NCBI GenBank assembly: GCA_965649765.1
Contig: OZ287750.1
Coordinates: 78,926,001 to 78,990,000, forward strand
Origin: Bispira polyomma
Lineage: Eukaryota
Length of the DNA: 64,000 nucleotides
Reading direction: 5' to 3'
Translations under genes and position numbers: made by a program
Notes under the pieces: model-generated
What the model saw: only the letters and a program-made list of their open reading frames with translations
Databases searched by the model: none
What the model was told of the DNA's origin: nothing
Part shown: positions 775 to 50,890 of the stretch, piece after piece
How the letters are laid out: every line of letters starts with the position of its first letter
Numbering within the stretch: the first letter of the stretch is position 1

Positions 775-3236
775 TAATCAAGTGTATGTGCAGCTTTTAA
801 CTAAATGACTTCTTTTTTTTTAACAAAATTTTGCTTCTTTCTAATAGATTCTGTGTTTGCTGGCTAATGGACTTTTTTCCCAAAGGTCAACAAGTAAATT
901 TTATGGTATATAAGTCCTTTTTTTTGACAGCTACACCTTTCATAACTTAACCAGATAAAGATAAGTTTAATAAAGGTCAAAAAGTAGTAAAAATACAATT
1001 TGAAAAAGTTTTACTACTTTCTAGTCAAAAGGTGACTGTCTGGTTTCAAGGCCTCCCATACAATAAAGCAAATCGTCTATATTTGTTCAAACTTTTTTTA
1101 AATGGTAAATGTGACATTTTAAAGTCCAAAGACAAATTTGTGTACCATACTCATTTCTTACAGCAGCTTCTGTTACTTTTCCCAGACTAACTCTGAAATC
1201 ATTGAATTTTCAAAGAACATTGATGATGTATTGATTAGTTCCTCTCTTTCTCAGGTTGAAAATCTGTTCTTTTCTTTATTTGCAGTAAAGCTTTAAATAA
1301 ATTTTTGAAATTGTTTTTAACTCTCTCTAAAATAAATCTAGATCTAGAGTGCTATAAATTGAGGCTGCATCTTGTTATTGACTTTAAAAAATTGGGGGTT
1401 TCAACTAGTGTTAAAATAGTATGCATTGCATTACATGTCATGGGTCGACAACCAATGCCATTTTCAGTTTTGTTCTATCTTTTTCTTTTCTTTTTTCTAC
1501 CTGATAGAAATAAAAACAACAACAAAAAAACAAGTAAAAATAAGAAACTTGAGAATGATGTAAATTGTCACTACCAGTAGCAGGTCCAGCCAACATGCAG
1601 TGGTTTTTAAGGCTGGCCTTCGTTTAACCATCTCACTTCTTCCCCCATTTTGTCTTGGAACTGCTATTTCACACACACGTGTACAAAACTTCTTATTTGA
1701 ATGATTTCATAAATTAAAATTGACAAATTAAATTTTAAATTTCTTTTTGCAGTTTTACAGCGTCTATCAATGTATAATGTAACCTGTTAAGATATAGGGA
1801 TTAAATTGCAAGTTGTCTTTAACTGTCTTTAAGTAACCAGTTTCAAACTCGTCAAGAAACATTCTCCCAAGTGCTGACATATTTTCTCACGTGATGAGAG
1901 GTGTTTTTTCCTGCTACTTTATTTCTTTTGTCTTTTTATACTCCCCTGGAACAAAAAGTTGAGGTGGTGGTATACTAGAATTAGATTTTTTTTTCGGTCT
2001 GTCCGTCCGTGGATACAGTCTTTCATGGACCACTATTGACAGAGTATGTCCACAGGTGAAATTAAAACCCAAGCTGATTTTAAATCAAATTTTCAGTCCC
2101 GCCAAGGCAGATTTTCAGTCCGTCTTGGTAAGATGAAAATTTCAATTTTGACTGGGCAGATTTGAAATCCGCCTGGATTTTCTCCTGTGACATATACATA
2201 TTACAATACATTTCCATAATTCCACAGCTACTTGGCAAAGCTTGGTTATGCCCTTCAGATGTTGTCAATATCAGACAAAGTTCAATAAGTACAAAAGCAA
2301 AATCATTAGCAGATACATGGTAATTACAATCTTTACCCACCAGGAACAAAACGAATGAAATTCAATGGTCACTGTGAACTCTTTCTTATCATTCAGGTAC
2401 AAATAAACTTGAATAGTGAAAATGATGTCTCCATAAAACTGTGAAAATGTGTGTATCTTTTTGTAATGGAAAAAATCGCCAATGTACAGTATTAATCACT
2501 GAATTGGCATTATAACAACACTTTTGACTTTGATCTTTCGAAATTTCAGGTTCTTACATACATCATCCTTGGCTCTTTGAATTTTGTCTGATGCAGATGT
2601 ATATTGCTGGTTTGCTGCATTACGACCTTTACCAACATTTTTCAACAATAATTTTGACATAAATTGGTTGGTATAATATTGGAAAACCACAAGGCCTAAT
2701 CAATGCCAACATTCATCTAGAAAAATCAGAAAAATCAGACATAAATACTGCTGTAGTCAAACATACCTATACCAGCTGATCCAGGCAGTTCGGAGTATTA
2801 TTCAATGTATGTTGCTTGTACTGCCACTATTGTGGGGAATTGGTCTGTATTTTGTGGGTTGATTAATGGAGTACTACAGACGATTAATCGAGCCACGTCC
2901 AATTGTCCACCAACTAACTGCTACCATATATGGCTTAGCTCCCAGAGATGAAAGCAGGTAGTACAAATTGTCTGCAGGTGACAACAGGTTAGAACGGTTA
3001 CAACTCTAATACTCTACAAAACAGTATAAGTGTTTTATCACCATACGTGCGTCCTCGCCATTGTCTCGGAAATGATTCTCCATACACTTCTATGCCTATA
3101 TTGCGCCCCTATGCCCACAAGATGCAGCGTAGCAGTATAATAAAGTTGTACATATGTTTGATTTTGAGTGGACTTTCTGTAATATATTTTTGAATTTATC
3201 ATACCAAATATATCTTCTTTTTTTTCTGTTTTATAG

Positions 3237-3324
3237 GAAAGTTATTGGCAAGATTGACCAGTCAGAATTTGAAGGCTTTGAGTATGTAAATCCACTGCTG
3301 ATGTCACAGGAGGACTGTGTCTGA
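3237..3324 (+). CDS. aPKC: Terminal coding exon of atypical protein kinase C (PKC iota/zeta family); upstream exons lie outside the window
   Basis: Polypyrimidine tract and AG acceptor at 3235-3236. Translation [28 protein letters not shown], stop TGA 3322-3324. FEGFEY is the aPKC hydrophobic motif with Glu in place of phospho-Ser/Thr; the C-terminal xCV resembles the aPKC PDZ ligand. Confidence 0.93.
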
Positions 3325-6043
3325 GCCAATGACATTGCAGCATTCATTAAAGCAGCTTGCCAACCTGATTTAGTTAAACCAGTTTCATCAGAATACTGTT
3401 TTATAACTGGAGTACTATTTGCATGAAATAGTGTTTTTTTATTGTTTCAAGATCTGTATAAAAGTGACTTTTAAGTTATTTTGTGATGGTGATTTAATGT
3501 GAAGGAAGGTGAAATTGGTATGTGCATTGATACATAGATGAAATTATATGATGAAAAAACAAATACTTTAAAATAAGTTTTACACAAAATGTATTACTCA
3601 CTAGTGATTGTGGACATTTATTGTTAGGCAGACTTTAAAAGCACACCGTCCCTTTTTAAAATGTATTTATGAAAAGATTGGAAGTCAATTATCCACCTAA
3701 TAGTTTATGAACCGCTTCTTTGTGATCTCGAGGAATATTGAAAAGCTAAGCTTACTTGTTGGCATTCAAAGCACTAGATATATATGAAAAATTACCTTTT
3801 GCTTGAAACTGGAGGAGGTTACAGCAGGAGTTTATAGGAGTTTTTCCATATTTATCCAAGTAAACTTCACAGGGGCGATAGTTTTTTTGTTTTTTTTTTC
3901 AAATTTACCTGCTTAGTTGGTATAGCTCAAATTGCCAGCAATAGATACTAAAACATAGAACACCCAAAAGTCAGTCCGAAACAGTTCACAACTTATCCAA
4001 ATGTAATATTTGTTAAAAAAAAATTTACGACCTAGAAGTGGATGGCATTTATTATGAAGGACACTTTTGTTTGAATAAATACGGTAAAGTTGACCACGTG
4101 GTACTTATATGATTGGGCTTAGGAGCTTAAATGCTGTTTCGCAATACTTCAAATTTATAAAAAACGTTAAATTTCTCAATGTTAAGTACCCGGGTATGTA
4201 TGTATATATAAGTGGACCTTTCTATGTCTGCATCTTGTGGTTGTAAAATGGATGTTTCCATCAAAACGGCTTCCGGTTACGGCTTGCCATTTGTGTTAAT
4301 ACGAATTTTGCCTCATCCGCTTGCCTGGAAGTACTCTCAAAAACACCCATGTGCAATAATAATAGGTGGTAACAAGTGGTAATAAGGTTATATTCAGAAT
4401 AAGATGTCGTATTTGATAAACCACATCTCTCCCGCCCGCCCCCCCCCCCCCCCATACTGAAATGAAACTACAAGCCCACACAAAGAAACATCCACTTATA
4501 CAACAGAGTATGTTACCGAGTACAAAAAATTTTAAAAAATTTATTACGTACTGCATGATAGCTTAGTACTGCATGATAGCTTAGTGTAAATTTTTGATTT
4601 TACGGAAAATAAGTCTTTTGTATCAGCATACTGCATTTAGTTTTCCAGTTGTATTGATCTTTATCAGCAGTTGTCTTTAATTTAAAGCTTTACTATTGTA
4701 ACGATTACCCGATATTATGTAACAGATACTTAAAGTTTACATTGAAATACTTGTTTTCTGTGTATATATCCTGTTCAAATACACCAAAATGCACCCCATT
4801 TTCCTAAATTTCACAGAACTGCCACTTTATATCCTCGAACGTCGAATGATCATCTTTAGTATAGGTATATATTAAGACAGAAATATAATGAGAAAACTAT
4901 TAATACTATTGAATACAGAGAAGCACATCATAATTTAATGACCCTTGTCATTTAACTGGACTTTCCCTATTTTTGGAGACTCGGTGCCTTAGAAGACAGG
5001 TGTCAGTTATGTGCTATCTATACATGCTTCCATAATGATAATAATGTGAGGCAGTATAGACAAACTCTATTTGGAACCCTTTTTAGGTCAGCAAATGAAG
5101 CTGTGGTATGTATGTGTTCACATGAACCTCTTCATATCTCAAATAGGACATTCTGTACAACTATTTGTTGTAATTTGTGACATCATCCGATCCCAGAAAC
5201 AAGATATGGCGCGATCTATCGCTCGACTATTGCTGAATCGATTGAATCTAGAAACCTTTGTTTTTTGAGACTGCAATCTGTTGGTACATGTATATATGTA
5301 TACTGTTTCCATTGGTAACTGAGTACTTCATTTTCATTTTCCAATTTGAAACACTGCATGCATCATATACTTAGAAGCTTTAAAAGGAGATGTGGTGTCC
5401 TACCGATTAGAAGCAGTAACTATTTTATATTGTCATTAGCCAGCTTATCAATGTGGGTTCAAATCCTGTTCATTCATGTGGGAAAGTTTGGCACCAGGTG
5501 GTTTACAGTGCCTTAGCACTAGTTTCCATCACTGTTAAATCTGGCCGCCATGATACGATTTAAGCTGTTGAAAGGGACGAAAGTCAGAAGTTTCTATCCC
5601 AATCCCTGGTTTTGTGATAAGGACCGCATGCCTTCACGGAGTTGAGAGAAAGTGACTTCAGGGTACTTGCTGTAAGCTCTTGGTTTACACAGTGGCTTCA
5701 GTACTGGTGGTGGTTTTTCCACCAATAAATCTGGCTGTCCTGTATATGACATAGAGTTGTTGTGAAAGCGGTGTATATCTCCAACTAAATCTATGTCCAC
5801 GGGTTTTCAAGTGTACTGTTTCTTTGTACTCAATCTGCATGAAATAAAATTACATACATAAGTTTAGGGATATATAGGTACATTGAAACCAGTTCTTACC
5901 AGTAAAAAATATTTACTTTTCACATTTATTATGATGATTATGATGTCTTTCAACTTGTAACTTATATAAATATATATCTAGGTTCGGCATATTTTATAAT
6001 GTTTCATGTACAAACTATTTACTTTAATTCTGTAAATAATAAA

Positions 6044-6080
<37 letters not shown>

Positions 6081-6255
6081 TCATGTATATATTTTCACAC
6101 ATTGCCATGTATGTCTTAGTATGTCAAATAGACTTTTCCCAACAAAAAAAAACCCATAGTGTTTGTTACATAACCTTTTTTGTATTGTCAGTGATATAGT
6201 TAATATAATCTTGTAGTCAATGGTATTAATAAAGAAACATCAATGAAATAAACTT
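3325..6255 (+). other. Probable aPKC 3' UTR (end uncertain)
   Basis: AT-rich sequence after the stop, with AATAAA hexamers at about 4074, 5843, 6038, 6228 and 6247. The true cleavage site cannot be read from sequence. Confidence 0.35.
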
Positions 6256-6319
6256 ATATACGCTCCATATTCTTGTTTATGTTTATTCAGTAGAACCTCT
6301 ATTTTACAGACATCTTGGG

Positions 6320-6710
6320 AGTAAAGTATTGCAACCATCATCACTAAATTTGTTGTGGAGGTGTATCATGTCAATAGCTTGGTTGGGATTGTATTTGGGC
6401 CCATTCTGAAAAACAAGATGGCTGCCATCTTGAAAACGGTTTCCGGACATTTAAAGGAAAAGTATTGCAGCTATCATCACCAAATTTGTTGTGAGGGTGT
6501 ATCATGTCAGTAGCTTGGTTGGGAATGTATTTGGGCCCATTCCGAAAAACAAGTGGCCGCCAAGTTTTGTGGTCTATAGAACCGTTTGCGGTAAAATAAC
6601 TATAAATCTGTACAAACAAATAACAAACTTGAAAATGTGTTGCTGGACCCTATCCCTGATACTAATTGCGCAACTTTCCTTTTTGGGGTCTCTAACCCCA
6701 CTTGTTAGTA
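6320..6710 (+). repeat. HINE-like 3' remnant with two ~135 bp units and a terminal hairpin
   Basis: AAATTTGTTGTG...GTATCATGTCA.TAGCTTGGTTGGGA.TGTATTTGGGCCCATT occurs twice. Hairpin TGGGGTCTCTAACCCCA followed by CTTGTT at about 6684-6706. Confidence 0.55.
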
Positions 6711-6954
6711 GGCTTTCATGACTTAATTTAACTTCAATTTTAACTACGATACATTTTAATCAAAAGACGGATTTACTTCATTTGGGGTATTCCAAGGACG
6801 AAAATGCAAAGGTAAAAATATTGTGAGAAAAAAATGTAAGAGGCAAGTGTGAATTTTATTCTGGTCTCATTTTGGCCTCATGGGGAGTTGTGATCTTAAC
6901 CTTGAAAATCTATATTTGTACCTCAAGTATCTACTAATAATAAGTGCATATGAA

Positions 6955-7650
6955 AACACTCGTATTGCAAACATCTGTCGCTGCTGCTATTACCATATAC
7001 GCAACCTCAAAAGAAACTGAAACCACCTGTCCATGGACACAGCGATAACTGTGGCTAATGCCCTTGTGAGCAGCCGCCTTGACTACTGCAACTCTCCTCT
7101 GTACGGAGCAAACAAGTCCCACATTAAAAAGCTCCAGTCCATCCAAAACTACTTATGCAGGGTTATTTTTCGCCTGGGTTGTCGCACAGATGTTACTCCT
7201 TACCTTAAAAAATTACACTGGCCCCACTCGCCCATTCTTTCTCGTATTTTGTTCAAGATTTACGTTGCCACTTTTAAGGCTGTAGTCACTCAACAGCCCC
7301 CTACCTTGTTTCCCTTCTCTCCTTCAGTAACCATAAGAGAGGCAACAGACTCTGTTTTTTTCGGTCAGACCCATCAGGAAGGCAGGATCCAGAGCGTTTT
7401 CTACTGCAGCTCCATTGTTAAGGAACAGTCTCCCAGTTGACCTTAGTTGACACACTTATTGGTTTTAGGAAAAAGCTTCTATCTTTTTAAGCTTGCCGTC
7501 CCACCTTAGCTTCCCTTGTGCACGCTCCCACTTTCTTCTTTATAACTTTGCTATGCCCATGGACTTAATGATTGGATCAATGATTCTGCTGTTGCGCTTT
7601 GGAAGATGTCTAGCATCAATAAAGCGTGTTAAAAATTCGTAATAATAATA
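6955..7650 (+). mobile_element. Decayed 3' fragment of a related L2/CR1 LINE
   Basis: TAITVANALVSSRLDYCNSPL...LQSIQN..LCR...VTPYLKKLHW resembles the C-terminus of the 17.6-19.2 kb ORF; ends in an (AAT)n tail. Confidence 0.8.
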
Positions 7651-9614
7651 TGCTAGCTGCCCTTCAATTGACCTTGGGGATACAATAGAGAACCTCTATT
7701 ATTAGGGGTGTGGATGTACAACATCTGTGAATCATTTGAATCGCTTGACTTTATAGTACTAACCTGACCTGAAACAATCTGTTTGACCCCTTTCACCATC
7801 GATTGAGACTAATTCTACTATACAGAGGGAAAATACTTTAAAACCACTTTCTTTTATGATGTCGCCTATGACTTTTTCACAAATTAAAGAATATATATTT
7901 TATCGTTATGTTAAAAGCAGTAGTACATAGATTGCATTCCTGTGTGCTGAGGAAGTTGACGTACAATAATATTATAGACCGTATTATAGACCGTCCACTG
8001 CAGGCCAACAGACATGGTAATAGAAATGACAAGGTTGATAAGGTCGTCGAGGAGTTAAGAAATAACATCTAGATTACAGTTTGTGTTCTTCACAAGAAGT
8101 TCATCGTTGATACTAGTATTCACAATGGGCCCCTATAAAGATGACCACCATGGTTTGCCCTGATGTTGACAAAATAACCTTGACCAAAAACGTCTATCGC
8201 AGTAGCTACTTTTGACAGCAAGTTTAAATGTGGTACAACTATTTGTTACAGAGTCCAGATGTGCAACCTATACAGGTCTGACATAATTTTGATATTTAAT
8301 GGTAAATTAAATCGCCTTCTAAATACATTAGGATGACTTTTTACAGAAATATTTTTCAGTTCATATTTGGGGTTCAGGTTTCAGATTTTCCTCCTTGCTT
8401 AATTATAGAACGACTTATTTTCCACCTTCGCAGCGGCGTGTCTACAGGATACATTCTACTATGGCTTAAGTTTATAGAAGATTAATTAATAATTCAATTT
8501 GCGAAGGCCAAAGATAATAGAATTTTAGACAAAGACAAATTGTACAACGACGAATACATCATAAAAAAACACTGTAAAAGGCTGATGATTTAATAAGGTC
8601 TACATCAATTCTGCATCAAGGGAAACTTTACAAAGAATTATTTTACACAGACCTATTAAACAGATCTATTTTTCTTTGTCACTACAGACGCAGCAGCTTC
8701 ATTGATTTGTGGCCACAATGCTTTAAATTTCCTCCTATTATAAAAATTTTAATATAGAACCGAAAAAAATTTGCACTTGGAGGTTGAATTACTTTGATAT
8801 TTCTTCTTGTAGTTTCAAATGGAATCTTTGCAAAGCTGCCTTTTATAATTCCAAGTGTCTAAAGATGGAGGTCAATACATTTAGACCAAACCCTTTAGAC
8901 CATAGTTATAAAAAGTATTTGGCAGTAGACTTTCTGCTGAAGGCCAGTGGTTTGCAAAGCAGAAAACCTTGACCAACTGTTTTTGATTTGCTCCTGCAGT
9001 AAATTGTCAGTTGTGATAGAACATGTTGAAAACAATGTTTATGTCCCCACCAATGGTATCTTTACTCACTTAGTATTGTAGTATCATTTGGGTGATGATA
9101 ATTATAATATTCTAAACCCTCGGCAAGGCAATAATAGCACTGTTAGACTAGTTGTGAGGAACACAGTGAACTGCCTCTCATGATATGACATGTAGGTGTC
9201 ATGTAAGTGACCTGCAAAACCCAAAATAAACTAATAATATAATCTTAAACTGTCTGTCTTTGTAGAGACAACAAATGTATCTTCAGGTATAACTGTATGT
9301 CTTGAGTTCCTTGCTGAAAGTTCTCTTAAAATCTCTTAAAAGTAATAAATGCCCAGGTCTTTTGCATTTTTATAAAAGGTGGACTATTATTAAAGAAAAC
9401 TGGAGATCTATGACGGTGTAAGATATTGTTAAAAAAAAATTATTAGTAATTTGTATAAAACATTTTAACTGTCCAAAGAATATCCGGATTTTTAACCATA
9501 GGTCAATGCAATTTACATGCTGACGCTGCATTTTCATACAATTACCTAATAAAATTCACCATACTATTTTAACAATTTCAACACTGATTGAAGTGATGAT
9601 TTCCCATAATATTT

Positions 9615-12312
9615 TAAAAGGGGTGAGGGCTATAATTAGAAAGGGGCCTTTATTATGTAGAATACGGTATGCCATTTCATTTCTGAAAATCTGAGCTTTA
9701 CAGATTTCATTTTTATTATTACAGTTAAAATACAAATAGTTAATTAGTTTTATTGATCATTACGAGAAGAACAATAAAGTCAATCAGCCAATAAAATATG
9801 ATATTTATTGTCTGACAGGTGGCTGTCCCTGATGAAAGGACACAGTTTTAAGGTTAACTCACTTCAAATTAACTTTTTTCAAGTTCATTTAACTGGGGTT
9901 TCATGTTGCTTTTAATGCGTCTTGTGTCATTTCAGGACAGGCAGCTCATTGGTGAAGGAGCTGCATATAGTATGCAAAGGTTTTCTGCAAACCACCGGCC
10001 TTCAGCAAGTCAACTGCCAACTTATGACCAGAGTGAGATTTTAACCCACCAATGCAGAGGTGGGAGCTGAATGTGTTATCACTACACAACAGAGGTTGGA
10101 GCTAAGTGTGTAACCACTACACTAAGAGGTGGGAGCTGAGTGTGTTACCACTACACAACTGAGGACCATCCTAAACATTTTTATTGTCAGGCACAGCCTG
10201 ATGTTATTTTTCATTCTGGAACGGGCGCCGGCATTGAAAAGGGCGCCACCATCTTGGAAATAATATCCAAGGTGTTTATGGATTGGTTGGAATCAATAAA
10301 GCTGCCCAAACTCAGCGAAGTCAGATTTTCCTGACATTGATACACAATTTTGTACTGTCCACATGTATTACATAAACAAGGATTAAACTGGGCCACAAAG
10401 ACCTAAATCAAGGAGAAAAACAAAATCCCTACTCAAACTAAACCCTTACTGGAATAAACCCCTCCCTGTATTACATCTAAAAATCTGTGAAAAGGGAAGG
10501 GTGTTGCTATAATTACAGAGGGGCCTTTATTATAAAGAATATGGCATGCTATTTTATTTCTGAATATCTGAGCTTTACAGATTTCATTTTTATTATTCTA
10601 CTTAAAATAGAAATAGCTAATTAGTTCTATTGATCATTACGAGAAGTACAATGAAGTCAATAAGCCAATAAAATATGATATTTATTGTTTGACAGGTGGC
10701 CGTCCCTAAAATAACACAGCTTTAATATTACTTCACTTCAATTTAATTTTTTTAATTCATTTTACGTGGGTTTCATGTTGCTTTCAACGCGTCTTGTGTC
10801 ATATCTCATCAGGCAGCTCACAAGTGTAGGAGCTGCATATAGTATGCAAAGGTTTTCTGCTTTGAAAACCACTGGCCTTCAGCAAGTCAACTGCCAACTT
10901 TCCCGCATATATGGCTGAATATTTTTTATTATCAGTCACAGCCTAATGTTGTTTTTATTCTAAAACAGGCATCGCCATTGAAAAGGGCACCGTCATCTTG
11001 AAAATAATATACAAGGCCTTCAGGAATCGGTTGGAAGCAAAATCGAGCCGTCCAAACTGAGTACGCTGCCTAAGTATAAAACTCGAGCCCTTATCATCTG
11101 CATTTTAAATAAAGTGAGTTTGTTGCTCACTAGACCACAGTCACAAATATTGTGTAATGTAGAAAGTTTGACGTTTTTGTATATGACAGAATAGGAAAAG
11201 TGATCAAATCCTTCTCCTGGGACATGTGGTGTACAATAAGGAACTAGCTAGTTAGTGTGCCTATATTTCCCTTTTGCTCACCTAGTAGAGTGTGGACCTC
11301 GTGGTCTACAGGTGGTGGACATTTGCACTCATGGTAGCAGCCCCAGAAGCTGGATATTGTCTAATCCTTCTAAGATCCTTTAGTTGAACAAAAGAGGCCT
11401 TGCACACTGCCCTGGACATGGTGTGCAAATGAGAAATCAGAGTGCCCAAGGTTCTGTACAACTTCAGCAGGATATAGCAGATAGCAGGTTATATGTTCAC
11501 TGGAAACTTATCCCTCAGTTTAACAAGCTGTGACTTAGAGCCAGACACAATGAATCCAGACTTGTCTGGATTTAATTTGAGCAATAATTGCAGTAGTTCT
11601 GGTTGGTTCTGATTGTGTAAACCAATAAGACCCTGGGACAGGGTCCCTGGGACACAGTTCATGTGTTTGACGGGTGAATGTGACAGAAAACCATAAAGTG
11701 ATATTCTAACATGACACGGCTGTGTCAACGATTCTGATTGGCTCAACTCTATGTTAAAAATACCGTACATGTACGAACGGAAGTAGACTAATTTTGTCTC
11801 CAGTTTAGTTGATATCCAAATGGATATAGTTACTTTAATAACGTAATTATTAAGTAAAACAGCTGGAATCAGCTAATAATTTATATTTGTTATGCTAGAA
11901 TAGAGATAACACATTCCAAAGCATGCTATACGGTAATTTTTAGCACTCTTGGGTTTAGAAAGACTTGGGCTTCGCATTTGTGTTACTACACCTCCAATCG
12001 TGCTAAAAATTACCATATAGTATGCTTTGTCCCGTGTTATCCCTTAAATATCACTACTACTGGTCACCAAATTTTCTTACCCTGTTGTTTTATACTAAAA
12101 TTCATTTACTATTTCATGAACATCTTATCATTGAAACACAATTTAGTACTCCCAACCTGTATTACATAACAGAGTATAAAACTGGGCCACAAAGACATTA
12201 ATTAAGGAGGAAAACAGTCTAGGCTGTTGAAGTATCAATATGTGTTGGTCGGTGTACAGACAAAATCCCTACTAGAATAAACCTGGACTGGAATAAACCT
12301 CTTCCCTATATT
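9615..12312 (+). repeat. Interrupted tandem duplication of a ~0.88 kb segment
   Basis: 9617-10320 matches 10490-11060 (e.g. ATCTGAGCTTTACAGATTTCATTTTTATTATT; GCCAATAAAATATGATATTTATTG; GGAGCTGCATATAGTATGCAAAGGTTTTCTGC). 10363-10473 matches 12158-12312. Confidence 0.85.
11490..11600 (-). mobile_element. Short L2/CR1 RT fragment
   Basis: LKLNPDKSGFIVSGSKSQLVKLRDKFPVNI aligns with KLNPDKTEFILFGSKLQREKLSSCFPVDI of the larger copy. Confidence 0.65.
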
Positions 12313-13221
12313 AATGTTTTTTTAAATAACAATTAGCAGTTCCGTCTAGACTCTAATTTTTTTTAGATAACTTGTAAATTAAGTTAACAGAGTTATTTAT
12401 GTAACAGTATGTGTATGGACAGGTGCTTTTAATTGAACTGTTGTACATTTACAATATTTTACAGCCCACATTTTGTATCAGAAATTGAGTGATTTTAGTA
12501 TTTCCGTCTTCCTGGTTACAAAGTCTTTAAGGCAGAAACGAAAATGAATGGGTAGGGTTGTTCATACAATTAAAATTCATACAATTAGTAAACAATTATA
12601 AGTGGTGAATATTCACAGATAATAAAGGGGAATGACTACTTATTAATTTCAAATACATTCCAAAAGCTAATTCACCAAGATAAATTTTCAGAAGCTATTT
12701 GTTTACAGGTTTTGTTTAATGTTCAGCTATCTGGGATTTGACAGGAAATCACCTAGTTCTATATTTTTCAAGATATCTCAAAAAATCAACAGTTCAGAGC
12801 TGTTTTCATTTATATTGTAATGTCATTCTCTGTGTGATGTTTAATTTGATATATGATTTTTGGGCCAGCACTTCGCCAAAATTCAGTATGTATAGTGCAA
12901 AAGGCTGTGAGATAACATATAATAAAATTAATAGTGTACTAACCTAACCCCAAATGAGACCTCCCCCCCCCCCCCCCCCCCCCCCCCCCCCGACTACACA
13001 AACTGCACCCTTGTGATACTTTTGTCTCAGTCACTGATAACTTTTGAGCCTCTAGTCCAAGACTAAGACTGTACTGGTCAAAAGCTTCTATGCAAGGTGC
13101 AAAAAGGGAGCGTATAGACAAGTGTAGCCTGGCTCAAGGCTTGATTGAGTTTCCTATACAATAATAAAATTAATAAAATTGCAGTTATGTCAATTGATTT
13201 GAATTTAGATATTTAACATCC

Positions 13222-13448
13222 ACCCCAGTACCTTTTAGTAGGTTATATTGGGATGGGTAGTTGGAAACGCTGGAGGAAACACTGCATACAGTCGGTCAAG
13301 GTTCTGCACTGAAACCAGCGGCCCACAGTAAGGAACCACCACCTTTCCCACATAGGCATCGACGGGATTCGAACTCATGCCGCCCAGAGGTGAGAGACCA
13401 GTGATTGTGAAGCGCAATGCTTGCTAACCACTAGGCCACCGCGGCCCC
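13222..13448 (-). mobile_element. tRNA-derived SINE (family 1)
   Basis: On the - strand GGGGCCGCGGTGGCCTAGTGGTTAG (A box) ... GAGTTCGAATCCC (B box). Related copy at 23817-24030 (+); decayed relatives near 5390-5820, 8920-9030, 9890-10170, 10760-10910, 20760-20980 and 55990-56145. Confidence 0.8.
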
Positions 13449-13861
13449 GTTATGTCAATGGACTCAATGCACACCTGAATAACATAATGTGCTCTTATCA
13501 TTCTTGTATTGCCACAATGACTCTTTTGACAGCACCAGTGGTCAACTATGGTCCAGTGGTAAAGGAGTTGATCTGGTGATTGAAAGGGCTTCAATTTGAC
13601 TCCCGGTAATGCCATAATGCTTGGGATAAGATCCTTGGACAAGATGTGAATATGCTTGTCCTCATTTTACCGTAATATATCGTTTTTTGGCCCTGAACAA
13701 AAAATGGCTGTATATATGTGCAATTTATGATCTGTAAGGTCTGCTGTTAAAATTAGGAAAAATTATTATACTACATTACGGTACAAAAACCATATGTGAT
13801 TAATATTTATTAAAAATCTAGAATTGCTGACCTACTGTTCAAAATTGCTGACGACTATGTA

Positions 13862-14208
13862 GTAGTGTCTGTGGCCTAGCAGTTAGAGTGTTCGACTTTG
13901 AATCAGAGGCTCCCACAGGGTACTAGGTTCAATTTTGGCTGTAAGCCGAAAGATTGTACCCATGGACAAGGTACTTTACACAAAGTTGTTCTTTTCCACC
14001 CAGGTGTATAACTAGGCACTTGGCTGCTAATTGGTGTTATAATCTCTGCGTCATATGTGGCGGCACTGCTAGTATATGCTCCTTCGTGGAGCTAAGAGTG
14101 AACAATTGGTTGACAAGTGGAAGAACCCAAGCTGAGGTTTGTAAACTGTGTACAGTGCTTTGAGCTACCAAGAGAAAAAGCTATATAAATGCATCACATT
14201 TACATTTA
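13862..14208 (+). mobile_element. tRNA-derived SINE (family 2) with L2-like 3' tail
   Basis: A-box TGGCCTAGCAG and degenerate B-box GGTTCAATT. Central CAAGGTACTTTAC...TCCACCCAGGTGTATAA block. Tail GTGCTTTGAG...AAAGCTATATAAAT...(ACATTT)2. Confidence 0.65.
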
Positions 14209-39395: not shown

Positions 39396-41524
39396 TATAT
39401 ATGACGTCCTGAGCTATTGACCAGAAATAAGACTAACGTCTGCAAAGCATGTCAGAGCTAGACATTGATAAAAACAGATGTTTCTGTAACCGTAAGTCGA
39501 GTTTCAGAAAAAACTTAATTTGCCAACATTCTCTGAAAATGAAATACCTTCTTAGTAACCTGCAAGATATCTTGTTGTATACAGCTTGATAAAATTGCTG
39601 AAACTTAAAGAGCTGTGTAGTTTTATTGTGTGAATGTTTATTTATTTATATCTTTGTTTCATTTGATTTTTGAAATGCAACTTTGAACTGACTTTAATAG
39701 ATATCTTGTCATGTCAGTTCCGTTTTTTGGGTTAAGTGTATGACTTAAGGGCTGTGTGTGTCTGATGCTCAGACAGGAAAAAGAAACCAAAAAAACAGAA
39801 AATGTAAAGAGAAAGAGAAAAACAGGAATATATTAGAATAGAGACAAAGCAGTGTCTAGGCATAGTGTCTACTTTTTCATCATCATCTTGTGGCTGAGAC
39901 ACTCAGGAGACAGTCTTCTTGTCTACACAGGATTTGTCTTTAAGTGCACTCCAACACCTTCGTGTTTTACATAAGGTCTGTCAGTGAGCTGGTGGCCTAG
40001 AGCCTTGTATATATTCAAAAGGGTTTTCCTTAACTTTAAATGCTTAAACCAATTCTTCCTTATACTCTAATGGGTACAACTGTGACCATGTTACCAATTC
40101 AATTTAATATACATAGCTTTCAGCAAGGAAATCAAATTTGTGTAGATTTTGGGATATATCCCCCCCCCCCCCTCCCAGTACAGGAAATGTCTGGAAGATA
40201 TGATTTTGAGATAAGTTGTGAGTTTAAGTTGAAGGACACGAGAGGATAAATCTGTTGTAAATTTAGTCTCTGATGTGAAGTAGGTGGATCAATATAACAC
40301 ATGGCTGTGATGTAGTGGTGAGCCAAGTATATTGTGAAACAAATCTCAGCCTAGCATCCTAAATATGTGGCTGACTTCACGCTGAGGAGATAAAAATGCA
40401 GTGATCAATATTTTTATGATTTTATTTTTCAGTCTTTGATAACAGTAAATTTTCATAAGAAGATCATAAACTTTTCTTTTTTCACTTTTGAAGTACGGAT
40501 TGTTATTGTCTAGGTTATAGACCTCTTTATTAAAAGTTACTGTTTCTGAACTCTTGAATCAATTCTGCCAAGTACATTTTAAGTCAAATAAGTTTTTAGG
40601 CCGTCTATGGAACCTGATAGTCGGATACATTTGTTTGTTTGAAGTAAAGTTAATTAGATTGGTAAATAAGGATTGGGCTATTAGTTCCCTAATTCTCTCA
40701 TTTGAACTGGAAATCTTTATTCCTTGGGCCAGTATCTTAAGTATATCTTAAGTCAATGTATCCATTAAATGGGGTCCTGTCCAGAAAGGAAAGAAGACGA
40801 GACAATTCTTAGGTAGCAAGCTAATTGGATGGCTTTGTGTATAAAGCTGACAAGCTTTGTGACCATTTATAATAGCAACAAACAATGAGACATTTTCTCT
40901 TTGGCCTGTTTTAGATGTGATGTTTCAAGGACTTTTTATATATAGAAAGATCAACAACATTATTTAACAACCTATTGTTGTAAGTTTTAAGTATCATGGC
41001 CAGTTTCAGAAAAGTGATTTTGATATTTGAAGGGAGGTAAAAGGGTAGGTTTATCTTAATTTTGGTGGTCTATGGTTAAGGCATAAAGTAGCTCCATAAC
41101 ATGGATGCCTAATTACTTAAAAATGGACCTGATTTGTTGAGAAAAAGATGCAAAAGAGATTTTCCAGGTTTCATCAAAATTTGTGGTGAAACTGTTGTAT
41201 TATTGCCTGCAACAGTAGTTAGTCTGTTGTTTTGGCCTAACAATTCTACCTTCATTTTCTTGATAATTTTCCATATTTCCTATACACTTCACTTGTCTAT
41301 TTATCTTTAACATATTTGTATAGATCAGCTGCCATGTCACTAAATTGGTTTATACTAAATGTGGCGCATTGTGTGGTCGGTAGTCTGGTGCCATGGCATT
41401 TACAATTACTGAACACTGATTTTATAGTTGTCCCAGGCCAGTATGACATATGGTTTATTTCTCTGAATGTTTTAACTTTACTACTACATTCTCTTAAAAT
41501 CAATTATTGAGATATAACACATAG

Positions 41525-41570
<46 letters not shown>

Positions 41571-44346
41571 AAAAAAAAACCCCCAAAAAAACCACCCAGT
41601 TTATGTACGAGAACAAATGCTAAATATTGCAAAATATAATGTGTAACTAAGTTGAACATCAACACGTGGATATTAAGAAGTTGTGTGAACTTGAAACCTG
41701 TACATTAATACTGGAATACGGTTTGCCTCAATCATTTTGAGTTTTAAAACTGCTATTACAAACTAGCAGCTGTGACTGATATCTGAAATATGAGCCAATG
41801 TGTATTTTTTTTCTGTCCAAACATTAATGTTTCTGTCTCTAGTTTTTCCCCCATATTGTGTTTGATTAATGTGCCATACATGTTTTGCATTAATACCTTT
41901 GTTCATTCACAGTTATCTATCCTTTTACAACATTATTACATGTACATACAGTTTACCTGAAAACTACTTTGATGATGGTCTTAAATGTTACAATTGCATG
42001 TGAACAATAGATGTCCACATCGAAAACCGTAAAGGTATTCAACAAGTATATTATATTATTAACACACATCTTTTATAATTTTTAACTAGTTTGCACATTG
42101 CGCAAGTCTGCGCATATGCAAACTAGTTCATAGCAGGACTTGAAAAGATGGAAAAAGTGTACAAGACGTGTCGACAAGCAAATCTTGAAACTGGTAGGGA
42201 GTTATGGTCTGAAATTCGCATAGAATCTTAAGTTCAATCTCTTGTGCTTACAGGTTTTTTTGGGGATCGATTCAAATAACGAATCCGCGAATATTGGGCT
42301 TTTTATAACATGAAAGTTGGGATATCCCTTGCGTTATACAACCTCATTTTGAAGTATTCTGTTTATGACGTCAGTTTCAGTTAAACTCTAGGATACAATT
42401 TTGCAAAATAATTCGAAATGATAAGATAACGGAAATCTCAATGCGTTTCCGGAAGTCTGCTGTGTCTGTATATTCTAGTACTTACCTGTAGCGAGATCGT
42501 TCAAAATTTTTATTGACAACATACAGCCGACAACAAGGGAACCGAAATTTTAAAAGCCCCGGTTTCGGTTCCTTCTAAAAATCGTAAGCTAACATCGCCT
42601 AAATCCAGGGAGGTAGCTCTAAAATTACATAATCTTGTTTTAAATATCTCTTAAACTTTTAATGGTCACATTGTCAAAATGTGTGTTTACAGAGAAACTC
42701 TCAGTAAAACAAAAACAATTGATACTTGCGAGTCACACTTAAATATTCAGACATCAGGGATTGCAATTTAAGTTTCCTTGAAACATTTACAGGCTCATTG
42801 TTTGGAGCCAGTTCAGTGTGAACATGGCGGAGGCTAATCAATTTGTGGTGCCAGTGAATACCTTTCCAGACTGTTCTTTTTTATGTTTTATGTAATCTGA
42901 ACGAGCAAGGGTGGAATGACCTTGAGTTGTCCTGTCTGATAGAGTGAAAAGCTGTGCAAACAGTGGCCATGCTGTTTCAGTGTAAAGTTTCCAAATTAAG
43001 ATTGATTCCTTGCTTAAAGGTTGTAAGCTGAGGAGTTATTTGTAGGCCAAGCACACTCTGTGTTTGATTAGAAGGCTGTATATATAATTTATCTTTTAGA
43101 GGAAGTTTTTAAAAAAAAAAAACAAACTGAAAATATAAGTGAAAATTGAATGGTACTTCAGGTATTAGTTTTAGACACAAATCTGATTTATATTTCTTTT
43201 TAATATTCTAGCCCACCACAAAATTGATCAACCACAGAGAAAACACAAATTTTCTTAAGCTATCAAGTAAATTTGGTTAAAACTAATACCATGTGCTATA
43301 TGGGATTTACTTGAACTGACGAACCAAGATACACACTTAGATACTGATAAATATTTTGTGATGTCATGCTATTGATTTGTGGTCTTTGCTGGCCCCCCCT
43401 GTGGTTTGAAAATCTGTCAAGTCAATCTGTTTTTTTTAATGCCAGTACATATTGGAGACACTGACACTGTGGAGAGAGAGATAGAGAGTACTATGTGTAT
43501 GTATGTGTTGAAGTATGGCTGAATGACTGTGTGCGGGGCTGAGACACAAATTGGACAGAGCTCTCTCTTCCCAGTCTCTGCAGTGTAATGTTTACCGAAG
43601 TAGATAGGACACAGACATTATTGACACGATGACGTAGAACTGTACTTTGGAACTGTATCAAGTGGGGGGGGGGGGGGGGGGGGAGGCTATATATATTGAT
43701 AGATAAAGATTGAAACATTGTTTTAAAAAACTCAATAGAACCTGGCAGCCATTGGCGCTATTGTTATTGATTCATTTGTCAGTCGCTTTTTCAGCAAAAT
43801 TAAATTTTTTTTTTTTTTTTTTTGTCAAAAATAATGAATTGATGTTGCAGGCATCCTCTTACAAATGTGTAGTAAATAGTAACTTACGAGTAAGAAATAT
43901 CTAAAAGGCCCAATGAGACTTTGAATACACAAATGATATAATGTTAAAAAATATATCTAAGCTTACTGTGTTGTAGAAGAAGTATTACATTAGGTGTGTA
44001 AACATTCCACTTGACCTGGATTCTCTGTTACTATTGACATCGTCCGTTCATCCCAGGCTGTAGAGTGTGTATTATTGTCCATGTGCCAAACAATTAATAG
44101 AGTTTATATGTTTTAGTAACAGCCCAGAATATTGACTAGACTGCCATAATGCCATTTAGATGCAATAAAGGTTTTCTATTAAAATATACAGTAAAACCCT
44201 GTTGAGTCAAATGTTTAGGGACCTTAAAAATTGGTTCTACTTAAAAATAACTTTTACTCAACAGGTAATTTCACTTATTAGAGTTCTACTTTAAGCGTTT
44301 GACTGTATAGCCATTTAAGAAAAAAAAATTTGTACAAGCCTTTATA

Positions 44347-44568
44347 CAGTGGAACCTCTATTATCCGAACTTCTATTACCCCAATATTTTATGAACATAT
44401 TATGTTTGCAAGAGCTTGATTTTGTTTGGATAATAGAAGGTTCGTAAAATAGAAGAGGCAGTTTAATATAAAACAATAGGAAGGCTAAATTTGGAAGAGT
44501 AAAAACAAGTTCATGGAAGTTAAATATTTGGATAACAGAAGTTTTGGATAGAATAGAGGCTCAACTGT
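44347..44568. mobile_element. pogo-type MITE family B (CAGTGGAACCTCTATTATCC...GGATA..ATAGAGG.TCAACTG)
   Basis: Terminal inverted repeats. Related pieces at about 35243-35405, 44905-45047, 49840-50011 and 60680-60855. Confidence 0.65.
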
Positions 44569-44612
44569 TGTTCTTAGTACTTTTCTATTTTCTTCCAAAT
44601 TCTCTTTTGTAG

Positions 44613-44807
44613 GAATTAGAATTCGTGAAGTTTGCGAAAAAGCAGAAAATTCAGGAATTAACGGAGGCAAAGAAAACACTGAAAAGAGAAGTAGAACGCC
44701 TGCGGATTGAGAGAGATGTCAAAACGCACGAGCTAGTCGATGAACGTAAGCTGAGCAAGCAACAGATGGACTCTGCACTATCCTCCAAAATGCCAAATGT
44801 CTTAAAG
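44613..44807 (+). CDS. Ski: Ski/SnoN coding exon 5 (coiled coil)
   Basis: Acceptor TCTCTTTTGTAG. ELEFVKFAKKQKIQELTEAKKTLKREVERLR parallels Ski [31 protein letters not shown]. 65 codons, donor GTAAGC. Confidence 0.92.
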
Positions 44808-45045
44808 GTAAGCTAGAAAGTAGGCTGGCAACATTCCGAAATAGTTGGTCACTTGTAAACACCCACGGAATAGCTTCTCTGTTAAGAGTGTGAGGGATCA
44901 TAATACAGTGGAACTTCTCTATCCAATTATTTGATTTTATGAACACAGTTTCACTCTCCTAAATTTTCATTTTCCCATTGATTTATGTTAAATGTCAGTT
45001 CTATTTTATTAACATTCTATTATCCAAACAAAATCTTGCTCTCCC

Positions 45046-45473
45046 CAATCGGACGAATAGACGTGCGGTCGATAAATCGTTGGTGATACTGCATGATTGT
45101 GGTTGATCAGTCCTTATTTTATATAATCAATTATTCACCAAATACTGTTCCTAACTACAACTAATAAGATATTTTGACGTTTAAACGTCATTTTATATAG
45201 TTTTTATGTCAAAAAAAAGCAATTTTTGGCCCCTTTTGTTTTCATTTACCGCCATGTTTATCGGAAGTTATATAGCTTAACAGGAGATTTTAAATGTCAA
45301 ACGTCTGAATCTAACTAAATTCTTATCGGATCACAGTATATTCTGCCCAGGATGGCATGAGAAATGCCTTGATATATTTTAAGCAATAAAAGTAGATGGA
45401 TAATCGATTACAGGTCGGTCAGATCATCAAGCAATTAATCAACCTGTAAAATATAGACCAATTCCCAAGACTA
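45046..45473 (-). mobile_element. Inverted copy of the 34771-35213 hAT-like family
   Basis: The reverse complement shares GAATTGGTCT...CAGGTTGATTAATTGCTT, CGACCTGTAATCGATTAT, TGTGATCCG.TAAGAATTT, CAGACGTTTGACATTTA and ACTTCCG.TAAACATGGCG. Another fragment starts near 2830. Confidence 0.75.
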
Positions 45474-46723
45474 ACTTCTATATCAAGCAATAAGAAAACA
45501 GAAATTTCGGAGAATTTGGAAACGAGTTCATGCAATCAAATATTTATACATAGAAGTACAGACAGGAAGTAGTTGCTCTCTAGCTGTTCCTGAAACTAAT
45601 GGGACTACATAGTAAGTTGACCCAGATCTTGTTAGTTATTACATCACAGAAGATCTTGATTCCTGAAAGATTGCCTTTTTTTTCTCTAGGCCTCTTGACT
45701 CCGGTAGACCTAAACAGAAGATGTAGTACAAACAAACAATGCCTGATACATGGATAAGCTGTTCTTATATTATTATTTATAGCTTTGTTGGTTGTTTTTT
45801 TTTTATGCATCAAAACTAAAAAGTGTAGCAAAGGCGGGGCTACGGCGGCGGTGGTGGGCCACACCAACACTACCAAGAGAGAAATTTTGTTCTCTTTTAT
45901 ACTGGCAAGGATTTAATCAGCTCTAGCACAGATAACTACTATTGACTTGGGTAATATGCCTGCTGAATAAATATTTGTACTTTGGTCATTGTAGTGGAAA
46001 ACAATCATTGTGTACTGGGTAGTCTCCTGTTTATTCCTCTCTGGCTCTCTCTCCTAGACAGGCCGACCTTGTGTTTACTCTTAGCCTTGCTAAAGGCCGT
46101 GTAGAACAATATTTTTTTGGTCACGGGTCGATGGATGTTTTGGTATGGGTAACATTTTGACTTAATAAGAACTAAGCCTGCGACGATTAATTGTTTAGTC
46201 GATGCATTCAGTGACTATGCAAATATAACTATTGAGTACTTTCCAGGAGTTTATGCCAAAATCATCAATTCAATTTAGTCCATCACTCAAGTACTTGTAT
46301 AGGTGGATTCCAAATTTCAGCAAGACTAAAATGGATGAAATGGGAATCTTAAAGCAAAAATTGCTGTTTGACAGTCAGCCGAGACACTGATGATTGATAC
46401 ATAAAACTACAGAGAAAAGCTTAGTCCACCAACAAGTATGATTGAAAAATCTACTTCTAAACATTGACTGTGTAATTTAGGTACATCAAAAGAAAAAAAT
46501 GTTTTTATTAAAGAGATTTAAGATGGAGGATATAAAAAGTAAGAGAAACATCATCAGGATGGTTAAAAATGCTTTATATTCATTATACATTAGCTCATCA
46601 GTATATGTAAAAAAAATCCAAGGTAACTTATTCTCCAAAAGAACTCCCAAGTCAACTCAATTAACAGCTACATATAACTCCTCTATATGGAAATAACCTA
46701 GACCTTTGACCATTCACTTTTAA

Positions 46724-46941
46724 GGGGAGAATATACCTGTCCAATTTTACTTCCGAATCCGTCATCCGACGTCTGTTTCCGTCTGTATTTATATTTAAAA
46801 AAAATTGGCACCCGTATCTGAGGTGGCATTGGCAAGGTGTATTCTACTTCTCTAATTCTTGATATTTCAATTTTTTTGGATGACGGAAACGAACGTCGGA
46901 TAACTGGTTCGGAGGCAAAATCGGCCAGGTATATTCATTCC
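46724..46941. mobile_element. TTAA-flanked foldback MITE (Kolobok-like GG...CC termini)
   Basis: TTAA|GGGGAGAATATACCTG...CAGGTATATTCATTCC|TTAA, with ~60 bp imperfect TIRs. Confidence 0.65.
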
Positions 46942-48299
46942 TTAATAGAGCTTTCCAAACAAAATTCAAATAAGCACTCCTATTAGTAGCATTTTGCTTA
47001 ATTTTATTCTAACCAGGAATATTGAGACTTTCAGATTTAAGCTTCAGATTTTCTTAAAACATGGCCACAAAAATTGAAGACTTGGGCAAGGCTACATTAA
47101 CACCAAGTGGAGATTTGGACGTAACTTTAGCTAAGACATTTCTATTGACTTATTGAAGTGTGGTTTCCCAATCGGAGAACTACAGGAGCAGTGAAATTCC
47201 CCCACAGAACAGACCGCTACTTTTAATTTCTACAACTTTGTCTGACAGGTTTCTTAAAACAGCAAAGTTACAGTTTTATGTAATTTAGTACAACATTAAC
47301 AGTTTTGTTAAATTCACCTAATTAAAGTTATTCTTTATGATATAAAATTCAGTCTTCCAACAGTATGTTAATAAAACAATATATAATCAATTTGTTTGAA
47401 TTTTCATAAAGTCTGATACACGTTTTTTTGTTTACACAAGCTGCAACAATGCTTAGAACAAGTATGGTATCTATCAGTTCAGGGTTATATTTTCTTTAAT
47501 TCTGTATTTCTTTGGATCCATGAACATGCAATTTTTAACAAGCCGAATACCAAAGAAAATATAAGCTTAACCAGTTTATTAAAATATTTTGACGAATATA
47601 CACAGTACTTAAGCCATAGACACAGTTTCAAGACCATAACAGAAAACTACCTGTGGGGAATTGTAACACTGGTACAATTACTGCAGTGTTTGTCGATATA
47701 AGGCATAAAGGTTATTAACTATTCACTTATCGAGCACAAAAATATATGAGCAATAACTGTGAAAGTAATCCAGACATAATAACTGTGTACCCAAACAGGG
47801 TTACCTAGTGCTACTAAATCTGGGGTTATTATCGTGAAAAAAATGCCGGCACTCAGATAAATTAATACAGAAGTAATAATCCGAAGTGCTGTAATACAAA
47901 GAGATGTTTATGGTGACCTAGTTTTGTTGGTGAAGTTTTGGACAGTTTGAAAAGGTTAAATTCAAAGTGTTTTTCCATGTTCGGCAGCTTTATCAAAATA
48001 TCTGTACTTTTTACAACTTTAGGCCAAATGTTTTGAGGATATCCGTCAATACATACAACTCCAATTACCGGTATTTGGTAATACTGCTTACTGTTTAACC
48101 ATAAAAACTGACTTTTGATCTGTTTTTTGCCACTTTTGTAGTGAGGTTTTCTTGGAAAAAAAAAATGAAAAATCGAAATAATTATATGTAGGTTGTTTCT
48201 GTATTGTATTAAACCCACAACAAAACTACAGAATATTCAAATATGATAAGAACACTTACCCTAATTTGAAATGTCCAAGTTAGGTCATAGTAGTATCTA

Positions 48300-48472
48300 C
48301 AGAATCCCTTTTAGGTAGAACTCTGTTAACTCAATTTCCCTTGTTATGTAGAGCATAATTTATTGTCCAACAGAGGTTTTTTCTTTGAAAGTCTACCCTG
48401 TTAAGTGGAAATCCTGCTTAGTAGATGAATTTCTGTTGGTCCCTTGAAGTTTCACATAGAGATGTTTAACTG
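48300..48472. mobile_element. MITE family A copy
   Basis: GTAGAACTCTGTTAAC...GTCTACCCTGTTAAGTGGAAATCCTGCTTAAGTAGA...AACTG|TA. Confidence 0.7.
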
Positions 48473-48483
48473 TAGTACACTAA

Positions 48484-48915
48484 GTGAGCGTTTCTATGCA
48501 AGCAACTTTTTGAGGCCACCAGCCGACAGCGATTCTGTTAGTTTCATTGATTTATAACCAAGTGTGTCCCTGTGGGCAACGCAGACGGGCGGCGGACAAT
48601 GCTAGGTGATTTTTTTTCGGTACCAGGAGCGAAAAAAAAAACGCCTGGCGTCGCATCTTGCATTGCTGATTCTATATTAATAACTCCGAAATTACCAAAG
48701 GTAAAAATTTCTCGAAAATATGGCGAGAAAGCTTATTTTGTCGGATATATTGTGCTTTTTGTTGCATCAAAATCGGTTAGAAATGACTAAAATATTCAAG
48801 TTTAAATACAGGTTTCTATTTTTGTCAAATAATTGTATGGAAACATAAAAATTGCAGATTGCCCGTTGGACGTCAGCTGGTCGCCTCAGAAAGTTGCCTG
48901 CATGGAAATGCTCAC
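48484..48915 (+). mobile_element. MITE with ~44 bp TIRs, TAA-flanked (possibly PIF/Harbinger-type)
   Basis: GTGAGCGTTTCTATGCAAGCAACTTT... / ...AAAGTTGCCTGCATGGAAATGCTCAC, with TAA on both sides. Confidence 0.75.
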
Positions 48916-50407
48916 TAAAGTTTTGTCTTATCAGTCAAGCTTGAGTGAGATTTGCGTTTGTCACCAATATGATTACCATGTATCATTGAACACAACTTGA
49001 ATACGGACAATTCCAACACTAGATATGACACAGCACTTTCATGCATAAGAAACAAGTATGAGAAACCTTGAGGTCACCATAAATTAAGTTACCCTCTGTG
49101 ATGTACCCGTACAACATGTCTTCTAACACAATTAAAAGTGTTTGAAGTTGAGAACATAATTGTAAAGTCAATTTGAATTTCTCTATGAATGGAATAATTG
49201 GATTTTGTGTTAATCGTATTAAATTACATTGTTGTTTTTGACTGAGATAAAGTCAATATTAGTGCACTAGGTGACTGGAAAGCCTGTTCTGCTTGTTCAG
49301 GGGTTGTAATGCTGTAGTAGGAAGACAAGGTCAATTATTAATGTTCTCTGTCTATGGGTCTGTCATAAAAGATAACAAACCTCTGGCTGTCATAGTAGGT
49401 CACATGATCTACATGTTTACCTTGGTTTTGTTTTTGGTTCCTGCCATTGATTTGTTTATTTGTCACCATGATTACACACACAAAAAAAACACCCACTGAA
49501 CTGATTTACTCGAAATTTAGTACAGGGATGGGAACACATGGGCGAAGGAAATATCAACTAAAATGACAGATCCTGGAATTTTTTCACTTTTTTGCCACTG
49601 TGGCTCGCCTTTGCGGTAGTGGTATCCACTCTTCTGAGTGTCTGTCTAGTTGTGAATGCATTTACAAGTGGTACTTGAATGCATTTATAAGTGGACTTGA
49701 ATCCCTGTATAAAGTGGACTTGACAGAGTAAAACATCTTGAAAAGCTTGGCTCTTTTGGAGGGACTATAGATATTGCTCTCTCAAACTGTTTGTACACTT
49801 TAGTAGTATATATAATCCAATCTTCTAGTTTCTGATAAGAGTAAAAAAGCTCTGTTATCCAAACAGGTTGGGAGAACAATGTTTTCTTCCGATAAATAGA
49901 AGGTTTATAAAACAAAACGGGCAATTTTGTAAGCAACAGTAGGGAAATGTTAATTTGAGAGAGTGCAAGTTTGTTCACAATCTCAAATGTTTGGATAATA
50001 GAGGTTCTACTATATTTGATTCTATAAGGATAAGTTTACTCTCCCTAATTTTACATATTCCTATCATTTTACACTAAACTGCCAATAGAAGGTTTCACAA
50101 AGAGGTCTTAGTATTAACTTAGTCTTAAGCTTAACATTTATATGTCTAAAATATTTAAAGACTGCCTACTGTTAATCTTAGTGTTAAGTGCCAAGTCAAC
50201 ACACTAAGCAAAGATCTTTTTCTTAATGTCACTGGCTCTTAACACCGAAATCCTAAACATTTTCGGCCAAAAGCCTGAGACTAATACGACCTTTTGTGAA
50301 TACTGCCACTGTAAAGAACCTTATATTATCTATAAAAGAAATTCCCCAACAATGTGTTTTAAGTTAAGAATATTCTGCAAGTGTGCTTCTTATTCTTGTA
50401 TTTATAG

Positions 50408-50890
50408 CTGAAGGCATACTACAAAAGCAGACTCGATTGTCAGAAGACCAAGTTGAACCAACACGAGCAGATGCACATTCAGATGTGTGAAGAGCTCGAC
50501 TTGCTCCGTGAACAGTTAAGGTGTTTCGGCAAGGATGTCCCGGATATCAGATATGAAATCGCCGCAGACGACCCTTCACTTATGGCTGCTCTAAACTCTC
50601 CCATAGAACCTAAAGCCGAAAATTGTTTCCGATTCATTGTCAGGGTAGATGAACCGGCGGCGGCGGTTGAGTCGAGCAGCAAAGCAGTCACTCCAAAAGA
50701 GGAGAGAGTAGATGCTATGGAGGAACAAGAAAAGAGGGAGAATGACGACGAACGGAAAATTCCAAAGGAGACTGGAAATTCCCCTATGAAGACGGAACGG
50801 AAAATTACAGTTAAAATAGAAGAAACTGAGTTGCCAGAGGGGAAGGAACTGTCCTCATTGGATGGTGACAGTGTCATTTCAAGGTCATAG
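50408..50890 (+). CDS. Ski: Ski/SnoN coding exon 6 (terminal)
   Basis: Acceptor TTGTATTTATAG, phase 0. LKAYYKSRLDCQKTKLNQHEQMHIQMCEELDLLREQL is Ski leucine-zipper-like, followed by an acidic tail and stop TAG 50888-50890. Confidence 0.85.
   Translation: MKAYYKSRLDCQKTKLNQHEQMHIQMCEELDLLREQLRCFGKDVPDIRYEIAADDPSLMAALNSPIEPKAENCFRFIVRVDEPAAAVESSSKAVTPKEERVDAMEEQEKRENDDERKIPKETGNSPMKTERKITVKIEETELPEGKELSSLDGDSVISRS

Follow-up and report, generated by a model that had tools for sequence, protein, structure and literature searches.

The CAPZB-aPKC-Ski gene order in Bispira polyomma: an anciently linked pair, a tandem second Ski gene and a putative regulatory block

Linkage between an atypical protein kinase C (aPKC) gene and a Ski/Sno gene has been listed before, and it is the system closest to the locus analyzed here. 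Touceda-Suárez 2020 (PMC7530604, Table S1) gives SKIL,SKI=PRKCZ,PRKCI as ancient putative genomic regulatory block (GRB) pair 8, linked twice in human, kept in three of eight non-vertebrates and derived from Irimia 2012; the human gaps in its Table S3 are 53,642 bp for PRKCI-SKIL and 43,300 bp for PRKCZ-SKI, and only 14 of 131 such pairs have stayed linked in human in more than a single copy. For pairs shared by four lineages, Irimia 2012 (PMC3514665) reports a false-discovery rate of <0.0002, with almost none in shuffled genomes, and assigns 593 of 595 ancestral pairs to the origin of Bilateria. In supplementary file 4 of Robert 2022 (PMC8851819), which gives at least five species for block 6515 ("Bilateria novel"), aPKC, Ski and CAPZB occur together in Capitella, B. 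lanceolatum and Daphnia, and CAPZB is listed for all five species. The Capitella species cell is mislabelled there and was identified by its accession, equal to that of a Capitella protein among the homologues found; these three animals are likely the three of eight non-vertebrates of GRB pair 8. Here, we describe the same pair in a 64,000-nucleotide stretch of the Bispira polyomma genome (G000:C3:78926001-78990000, the window), on a 104-Mb contig (C3) of a 1.035-Gb assembly in 75 contigs, where the last exon of aPKC is followed on the same strand by a Ski gene, SkiA, an arrangement that almost certainly reflects common ancestry.

Published tables already record the aPKC-Ski linkage, give it a bilaterian age and label it a putative regulatory block, and an annelid is already among the species, so as a discovery the locus adds little. 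In our literature search the pair was absent from main texts and surfaced only in supplementary tables, and the supplements of PMC5585340 held none of the gene names. A first-pass annotation of the window had presented the adjacency as a candidate ancient microsynteny, a candidate that the published tables show not to be new, and had proposed a linkage of bilaterian age, which agrees with Table S1 of PMC7530604 and with block 6515 of PMC8851819, whose third gene, CAPZB, adjoins aPKC here. Its further suggestion of a possible regulatory block agrees with the putative GRB label in print. What the present analysis adds is the tandem duplication of Ski and a pair of alternative activation-loop exons in aPKC, along with one more chromosome-level example retaining the CAPZB-aPKC-Ski order.

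The local gene order is CAPZB(-), aPKC(+), SkiA(+) and SkiB(+), the last being a second Ski/Sno gene. Compared with GRB pair 8, the same two gene families are adjacent, with 21,778 bp from the aPKC stop to the SkiA ATG, a distance measured differently from the human gaps, and CAPZB is adjacent here as well. Order and strand are those of human PRKCZ-SKI and PRKCI-SKIL, but this genome carries one aPKC and two tandem Ski genes rather than two whole-genome-duplication copies of the pair. In human, FAAP20 sits between PRKCZ and SKI, and no counterpart was recognized between aPKC and SkiA. Block 6515 likewise groups CAPZB with aPKC and Ski in B. lanceolatum, Capitella and Daphnia, and the amphioxus rows have the order seen at this locus; the Capitella rows, which are not stated to be positional, place CAPZB between SKI and aPKC. 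The second Ski copy is listed for no species of that block (PMC8851819). As in the Islet-Scaper and Otx-Ehbp1 blocks, a developmental regulator lies beside an unrelated long-intron gene with cross-phylum linkage (PMC3514665, PMC7530604). However, those blocks are retained more widely (in 8 and 6 of the 8 species, where aPKC-Ski is retained in 3) and have circular chromosome conformation capture (4C) contacts and reporter-tested enhancers; no contact or reporter test of aPKC-Ski was found in our literature search.

The last coding exon of aPKC, with its stop codon, occupies 3237..3324 on the plus strand, as judged from its acceptor, homology and spliced frame: an AG acceptor directly precedes 3237, and 3238-3324 encode 28 residues and the stop. 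The strongest PDB match of this exon is PKC iota (E 6e-10), followed by PKC alpha (2e-4) and PKC beta (0.01). A further 15 exons of the gene were mapped beyond the window, on the same strand (G000:C3:78799828-78902387). In the 200 kb upstream, tblastn with five named aPKCs recovered exons for PB1, the pseudosubstrate, C1 and the kinase domain, in that order; the first coding exon lies 126 kb before the window begins, and all mapped introns are GT-AG. When spliced, the ten exons of the kinase half form a single open frame that terminates at the 3324 stop, and the last exon is therefore neither stray nor broken. The first-pass annotation was right to call it the terminal exon of an aPKC, since the PKC iota match, the remainder of the gene upstream and the open kinase frame exclude a pseudogene or a kinase of another kind.

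The spliced kinase domain again matches PKC iota best in PDB (E 5e-20; next kinase 9e-9), and the kinase half is 81-91% identical to 20 named aPKCs, the top four being annelid (87-91%). An alanine in the glycine-rich loop is diagnostic of atypical PKC and is present here, as is a second feature of the class, a C-terminal hydrophobic motif, in intact frame, in which an acidic residue replaces the phospho-site. The N-terminal exons can be aligned with the N-terminal part of aPKCs that carry a PB1 domain, and the two split PB1 exons gave no Pfam match when searched singly. The C1 domain matches Pfam C1_1 (E 3e-14) and the exons are colinear with an aPKC having one C1, a colinearity from which we infer that the protein probably lacks a C2 domain, hinge exons between C1 and kinase being unmapped. 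When one kinase exon was searched against the genome, three of 31 candidates matched, one of aPKC grade and two weak (42-45%).

SkiA consists of seven coding exons on the plus strand, with GT-AG introns throughout and an intact frame of 772 aa that has a single stop, at 50890. Exon 1 (25103..25981) carries an N-terminal conserved stretch, the Dachshund-homology domain and the Smad4-binding domain; exon 2 (31174..31280) has weak homology and is the sole splice-and-phase-compatible candidate; and exons 3 (33026..33127), 4 (34349..34668), 5 (35605..35837), 6 (44613..44807) and 7, with the stop (50408..50890), complete the frame. A coiled-coil region likely begins in exon 5, and exons 5-7 have weak similarity to the C-terminal ends of Ski proteins. 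Pfam identified DHD (E 3e-39) and c-SKI_SMAD_bind (E 2e-39), PDB matches favored Ski/SnoN (E 1e-30 to 1e-39) over Dachshund (9e-7), and the best named match is from Owenia (62%). This domain pair and the grouping with Ski/SnoN in trees identify the gene as Ski/Sno and not SKOR/Fussel or Dachshund, so that the earlier call of a downstream Ski/Sno gene on the same strand holds. A pyrimidine tract with an acceptor-like AG at 24905, some 200 bases ahead of the start codon, suggests an unmapped non-coding 5' exon, and the SkiA promoter and non-coding first exon may lie farther upstream, nearer aPKC.

The interval from the aPKC 3' flank to the SkiA start codon (3325..25102) is repeat-rich, with AATAAA at 4074, 5724 and 5843. 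It holds 159 stop-to-stop frames of at least 45 aa, and of the 150 scanned with Pfam one was above the cut-off (RVT_1, LINE) and two were weak and below it. Only retroelement debris was recognized, in keeping with the annotated absence of another host gene between the two, by a frame scan that would miss a gene of short or divergent exons. The RVT_1 hit (E 6e-33) belongs to a high-copy LINE-type reverse transcriptase frame on the minus strand (17650..19302), and a likely LINE C-terminal fragment at 7021..7437 (+) has no Pfam match and is high-copy in DNA contigs. Matching to DNA contigs indicates that much of the gap is high-copy repeat, while its unique parts agree with the assembly.

As to why the linkage persists, we lean towards the view that putative Ski enhancers within aPKC hold the pair together as a GRB. 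Under this model, the Ski control elements would lie inside the aPKC gene, aPKC would be a bystander, and a break between the two, by separating Ski from those elements, would be disfavored by selection. A developmental regulator (Ski) lies beside a non-developmental bystander (aPKC), as the pair is classed in PMC7530604; no gene was recognized between them, and pairs are listed in human, amphioxus, Capitella and Daphnia, as in a conserved ancestral microsyntenic pair in the sense of Irimia 2012. GRB predictions 1 and 2 of that study also fit, the first through the pairing of a developmental regulator with a non-developmental gene and the second, more tentatively, through the long gaps in aPKC and the ~15-kb CAPZB (PMC3514665). 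The 15 gaps between mapped aPKC exons average 8.5 kb and 4 of 15 exceed 10 kb, and the last two, nearest Ski, are among the largest (20.9 and 26.8 kb). We favor a regulatory block because these long introns lie nearest Ski and because both human duplicates stayed linked, as in few of the listed pairs.

Retention across other animals was examined by an indirect check of 24 invertebrate assemblies in which both proteins are named; the count leaves out Haliotis, the oysters, Ylistrum and Lymnaea, for which no pair came from a single assembly. The two genes share a contig in 15 of the 24, which is not the same as adjacency. Of ten Ski-like representatives looked up for annelid locus tags, two had names, both from horseshoe crabs. 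GenBank accessions are taken to follow genomic position, and those of B. lanceolatum are near-consecutive (SKI CAH1239349/50, PRKCI CAH1239352); RefSeq accession offsets (26 to 4563, 10 assemblies) were left unused, as their agreement with position is not demonstrable. None of 80 Ski loci on metagenome contigs had an aPKC match, a null that is uninformative on linkage because most of these contigs are short.

Several observations weigh against a regulatory block, the first being that the pair has been lost repeatedly across lineages. It lies on separate contigs in the other nine assemblies (the Pinctada chromosomes and eight scaffold-level assemblies including Acanthaster), and two annotations of Biomphalaria glabrata separate the genes by 177 and 192 GenBank accessions. 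In block 6515, Acanthaster has CAPZB, Ski and ECE2 without aPKC, and Ptychodera has CAPZB, a tyrosine kinase and aPKC without Ski (PMC8851819). At the locus itself, the local-repeat fraction reveals no depletion (0.33 in the aPKC body and 0.38 in the gap, against 0.26 and 0.32 in the flanks), and a comparison of the SkiA and SkiB surroundings gave 437 matches, of which those outside local repeats were scattered or exonic, with no colinear non-coding likeness. Lengths of aPKC introns have no genome-wide baseline for comparison, and one long exon gap (18.6 kb) may contain unmapped hinge exons. The pair is apparently broken in Biomphalaria and Pinctada and its retention is patchy, from which it follows that it is old but was lost more than once. 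Absence from other invertebrate lineages, which the first-pass annotation had taken as a sign of chance or misassembly, is thus partly real, the pair being absent or doubtful in several, and it weakens strict constraint but does not indicate chance.

Such losses would also be expected if the ancestral linkage were kept by inertia, with slow rearrangement, neighbors lost at random and no regulatory reason, a possibility that we take seriously while thinking it less than even. Different sub-pairs survive in different lineages, location on one contig in 15 of 24 assemblies is expected from chromosome-scale synteny alone, repeats are not depleted in aPKC or the gap, and other human neighbors or block members are on contig C3 yet distant, such as RER1 (51.1 Mb) and an Ack-type domain (50.3 Mb). 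On the other hand, inertia does not readily account for both human ohnolog pairs being still linked, as in 14 of 131 pairs (PMC7530604), or for Daphnia retaining the pair as consecutive accessions (PMC8851819); shuffled genomes are nearly devoid of four-lineage pairs, though this tests chance and not inertia (PMC3514665).

Alternatively, the head-to-head CAPZB and aPKC could share a control region, with Ski co-expressed or carried along, which we consider unlikely. CAPZB is a multi-exon gene on the minus strand upstream of aPKC and outside the window (~G000:C3:78775980-78791103), its mapped exons covering ~15 kb, and its likely start is 8.7 kb from that of aPKC, with a CpG-richer kilobase (observed/expected 0.94) close to its 5' end. 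Most ancient pairs are head-to-head (PMC3514665), and the presence of CAPZB in all five listed species of block 6515 would also suit co-regulation. Yet bidirectional promoters are short (<1 kb, PMC3514665) next to the 8.7 kb here, Acanthaster retains CAPZB with Ski and not with aPKC (PMC8851819), and co-regulation leaves unexplained human PRKCZ-SKI and PRKCI-SKIL, which are listed with a single bystander family (PMC7530604).

Chance adjacency, an assembly error or a remnant exon is very improbable: although no single DNA contig in three runs bridges the gap, the contigs ending at repeats and possibly deriving from the assembled sample itself, the unique gap parts have 0 differing letters in 24 pieces among the matches listed, the whole aPKC gene lies upstream with its kinase frame open, the probe exon has one aPKC-grade match in the genome, and CAPZB, aPKC and Ski reproduce the published block 6515 (PMC8851819).

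SkiB lies on the same strand as SkiA (G000:C3:79002124-79054347), beginning 25.2 kb after it and 12 kb past the window end. Six exons, a partial gene model, were located in a layout matching that of SkiA, and the two genes are 62% identical over the domains and 52% over exon 1. A careful tree was built from the 37 exon-1 sequences left after 80 rows, including a long SKOR-like outgroup, were dropped from the 117 of a quick tree. In it, SkiA, SkiB and three other proteins form one clade (98/98) within the lophotrochozoan group and apart from vertebrates, which rules out SkiA and SkiB as counterparts of SKI and SKIL. By this phylogeny, SkiB arose later, through a tandem duplication restricted to its lineage and separate from that in vertebrates. 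Because SkiB joins two of the three clade-mates (P0433 and P0439) at 99/98, with the quick tree in agreement, the duplication likely predates B. polyomma, and it may mark a clade.

For the GRB model, the tandem copy provides an internal comparison. That putative aPKC enhancers drive both SkiA and SkiB, or the proximal SkiA only, SkiB having gained its own control, is a proposal that we hold as doubtful. If true, the locus would be a natural test of a ~600-million-year-old regulatory block after tandem, and not whole-genome, duplication, with both Ski copies kept. It would matter more with the enhancer mechanism shown, because no test was found for the pair and both human copies were kept.

Beyond these genes, an intronless, divergent CAPZB-like open frame (G000:C3:73411932-73412630), 44-57% identical to exons of the spliced CAPZB, is likely an old retrogene. 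Two remoter Ski-family loci (G000:C2:8712299-8712871 and C2:79267581-79267955), only 37% identical, are presumably of SKOR/Fussel type. SkiA intron 5 contains a broken pogo/Tigger-like DDE transposase (37533..39018, +) with CENP-B_N, HTH_Tnp_Tc5 and DDE_1. Downstream of SkiB, where 76 frames were scanned, the first recognized genes are ~115 kb away: a long frame encoding ankyrin repeats and a weakly matching SOCS box comes first, followed by two glycosyltransferase-8 frames. Neprilysin/ECE and Ack had no match near the aPKC-Ski locus; all 26 neprilysin-family matches, like RER1 and the Ack-type domain, are far away on C3, in line with chromosome-scale retention of distant block members. eIF5A had no match at all, a null that carries no information.

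Upstream of the window, the activation loop of aPKC has two tandem exons of 88 bases each (G000:C3:78863223-78863310 and 78866733-78866820), both with GT-AG ends. Either alone gives an open frame and both together a frameshift, so they are likely mutually exclusive. Deuterostome and arthropod aPKC proteins compared have one activation-loop form per species, and annotated isoforms of three Mytilus species and Biomphalaria vary in the matching segment, which suggests a splice choice common to annelids and molluscs. The exon pair was not found in a targeted literature search, short of a full literature check, and two snail aPKC papers describe other splice events (10.1101/620633, PMC6539039). These alternative exons may be of interest to those who study kinases and memory in molluscs and annelids.

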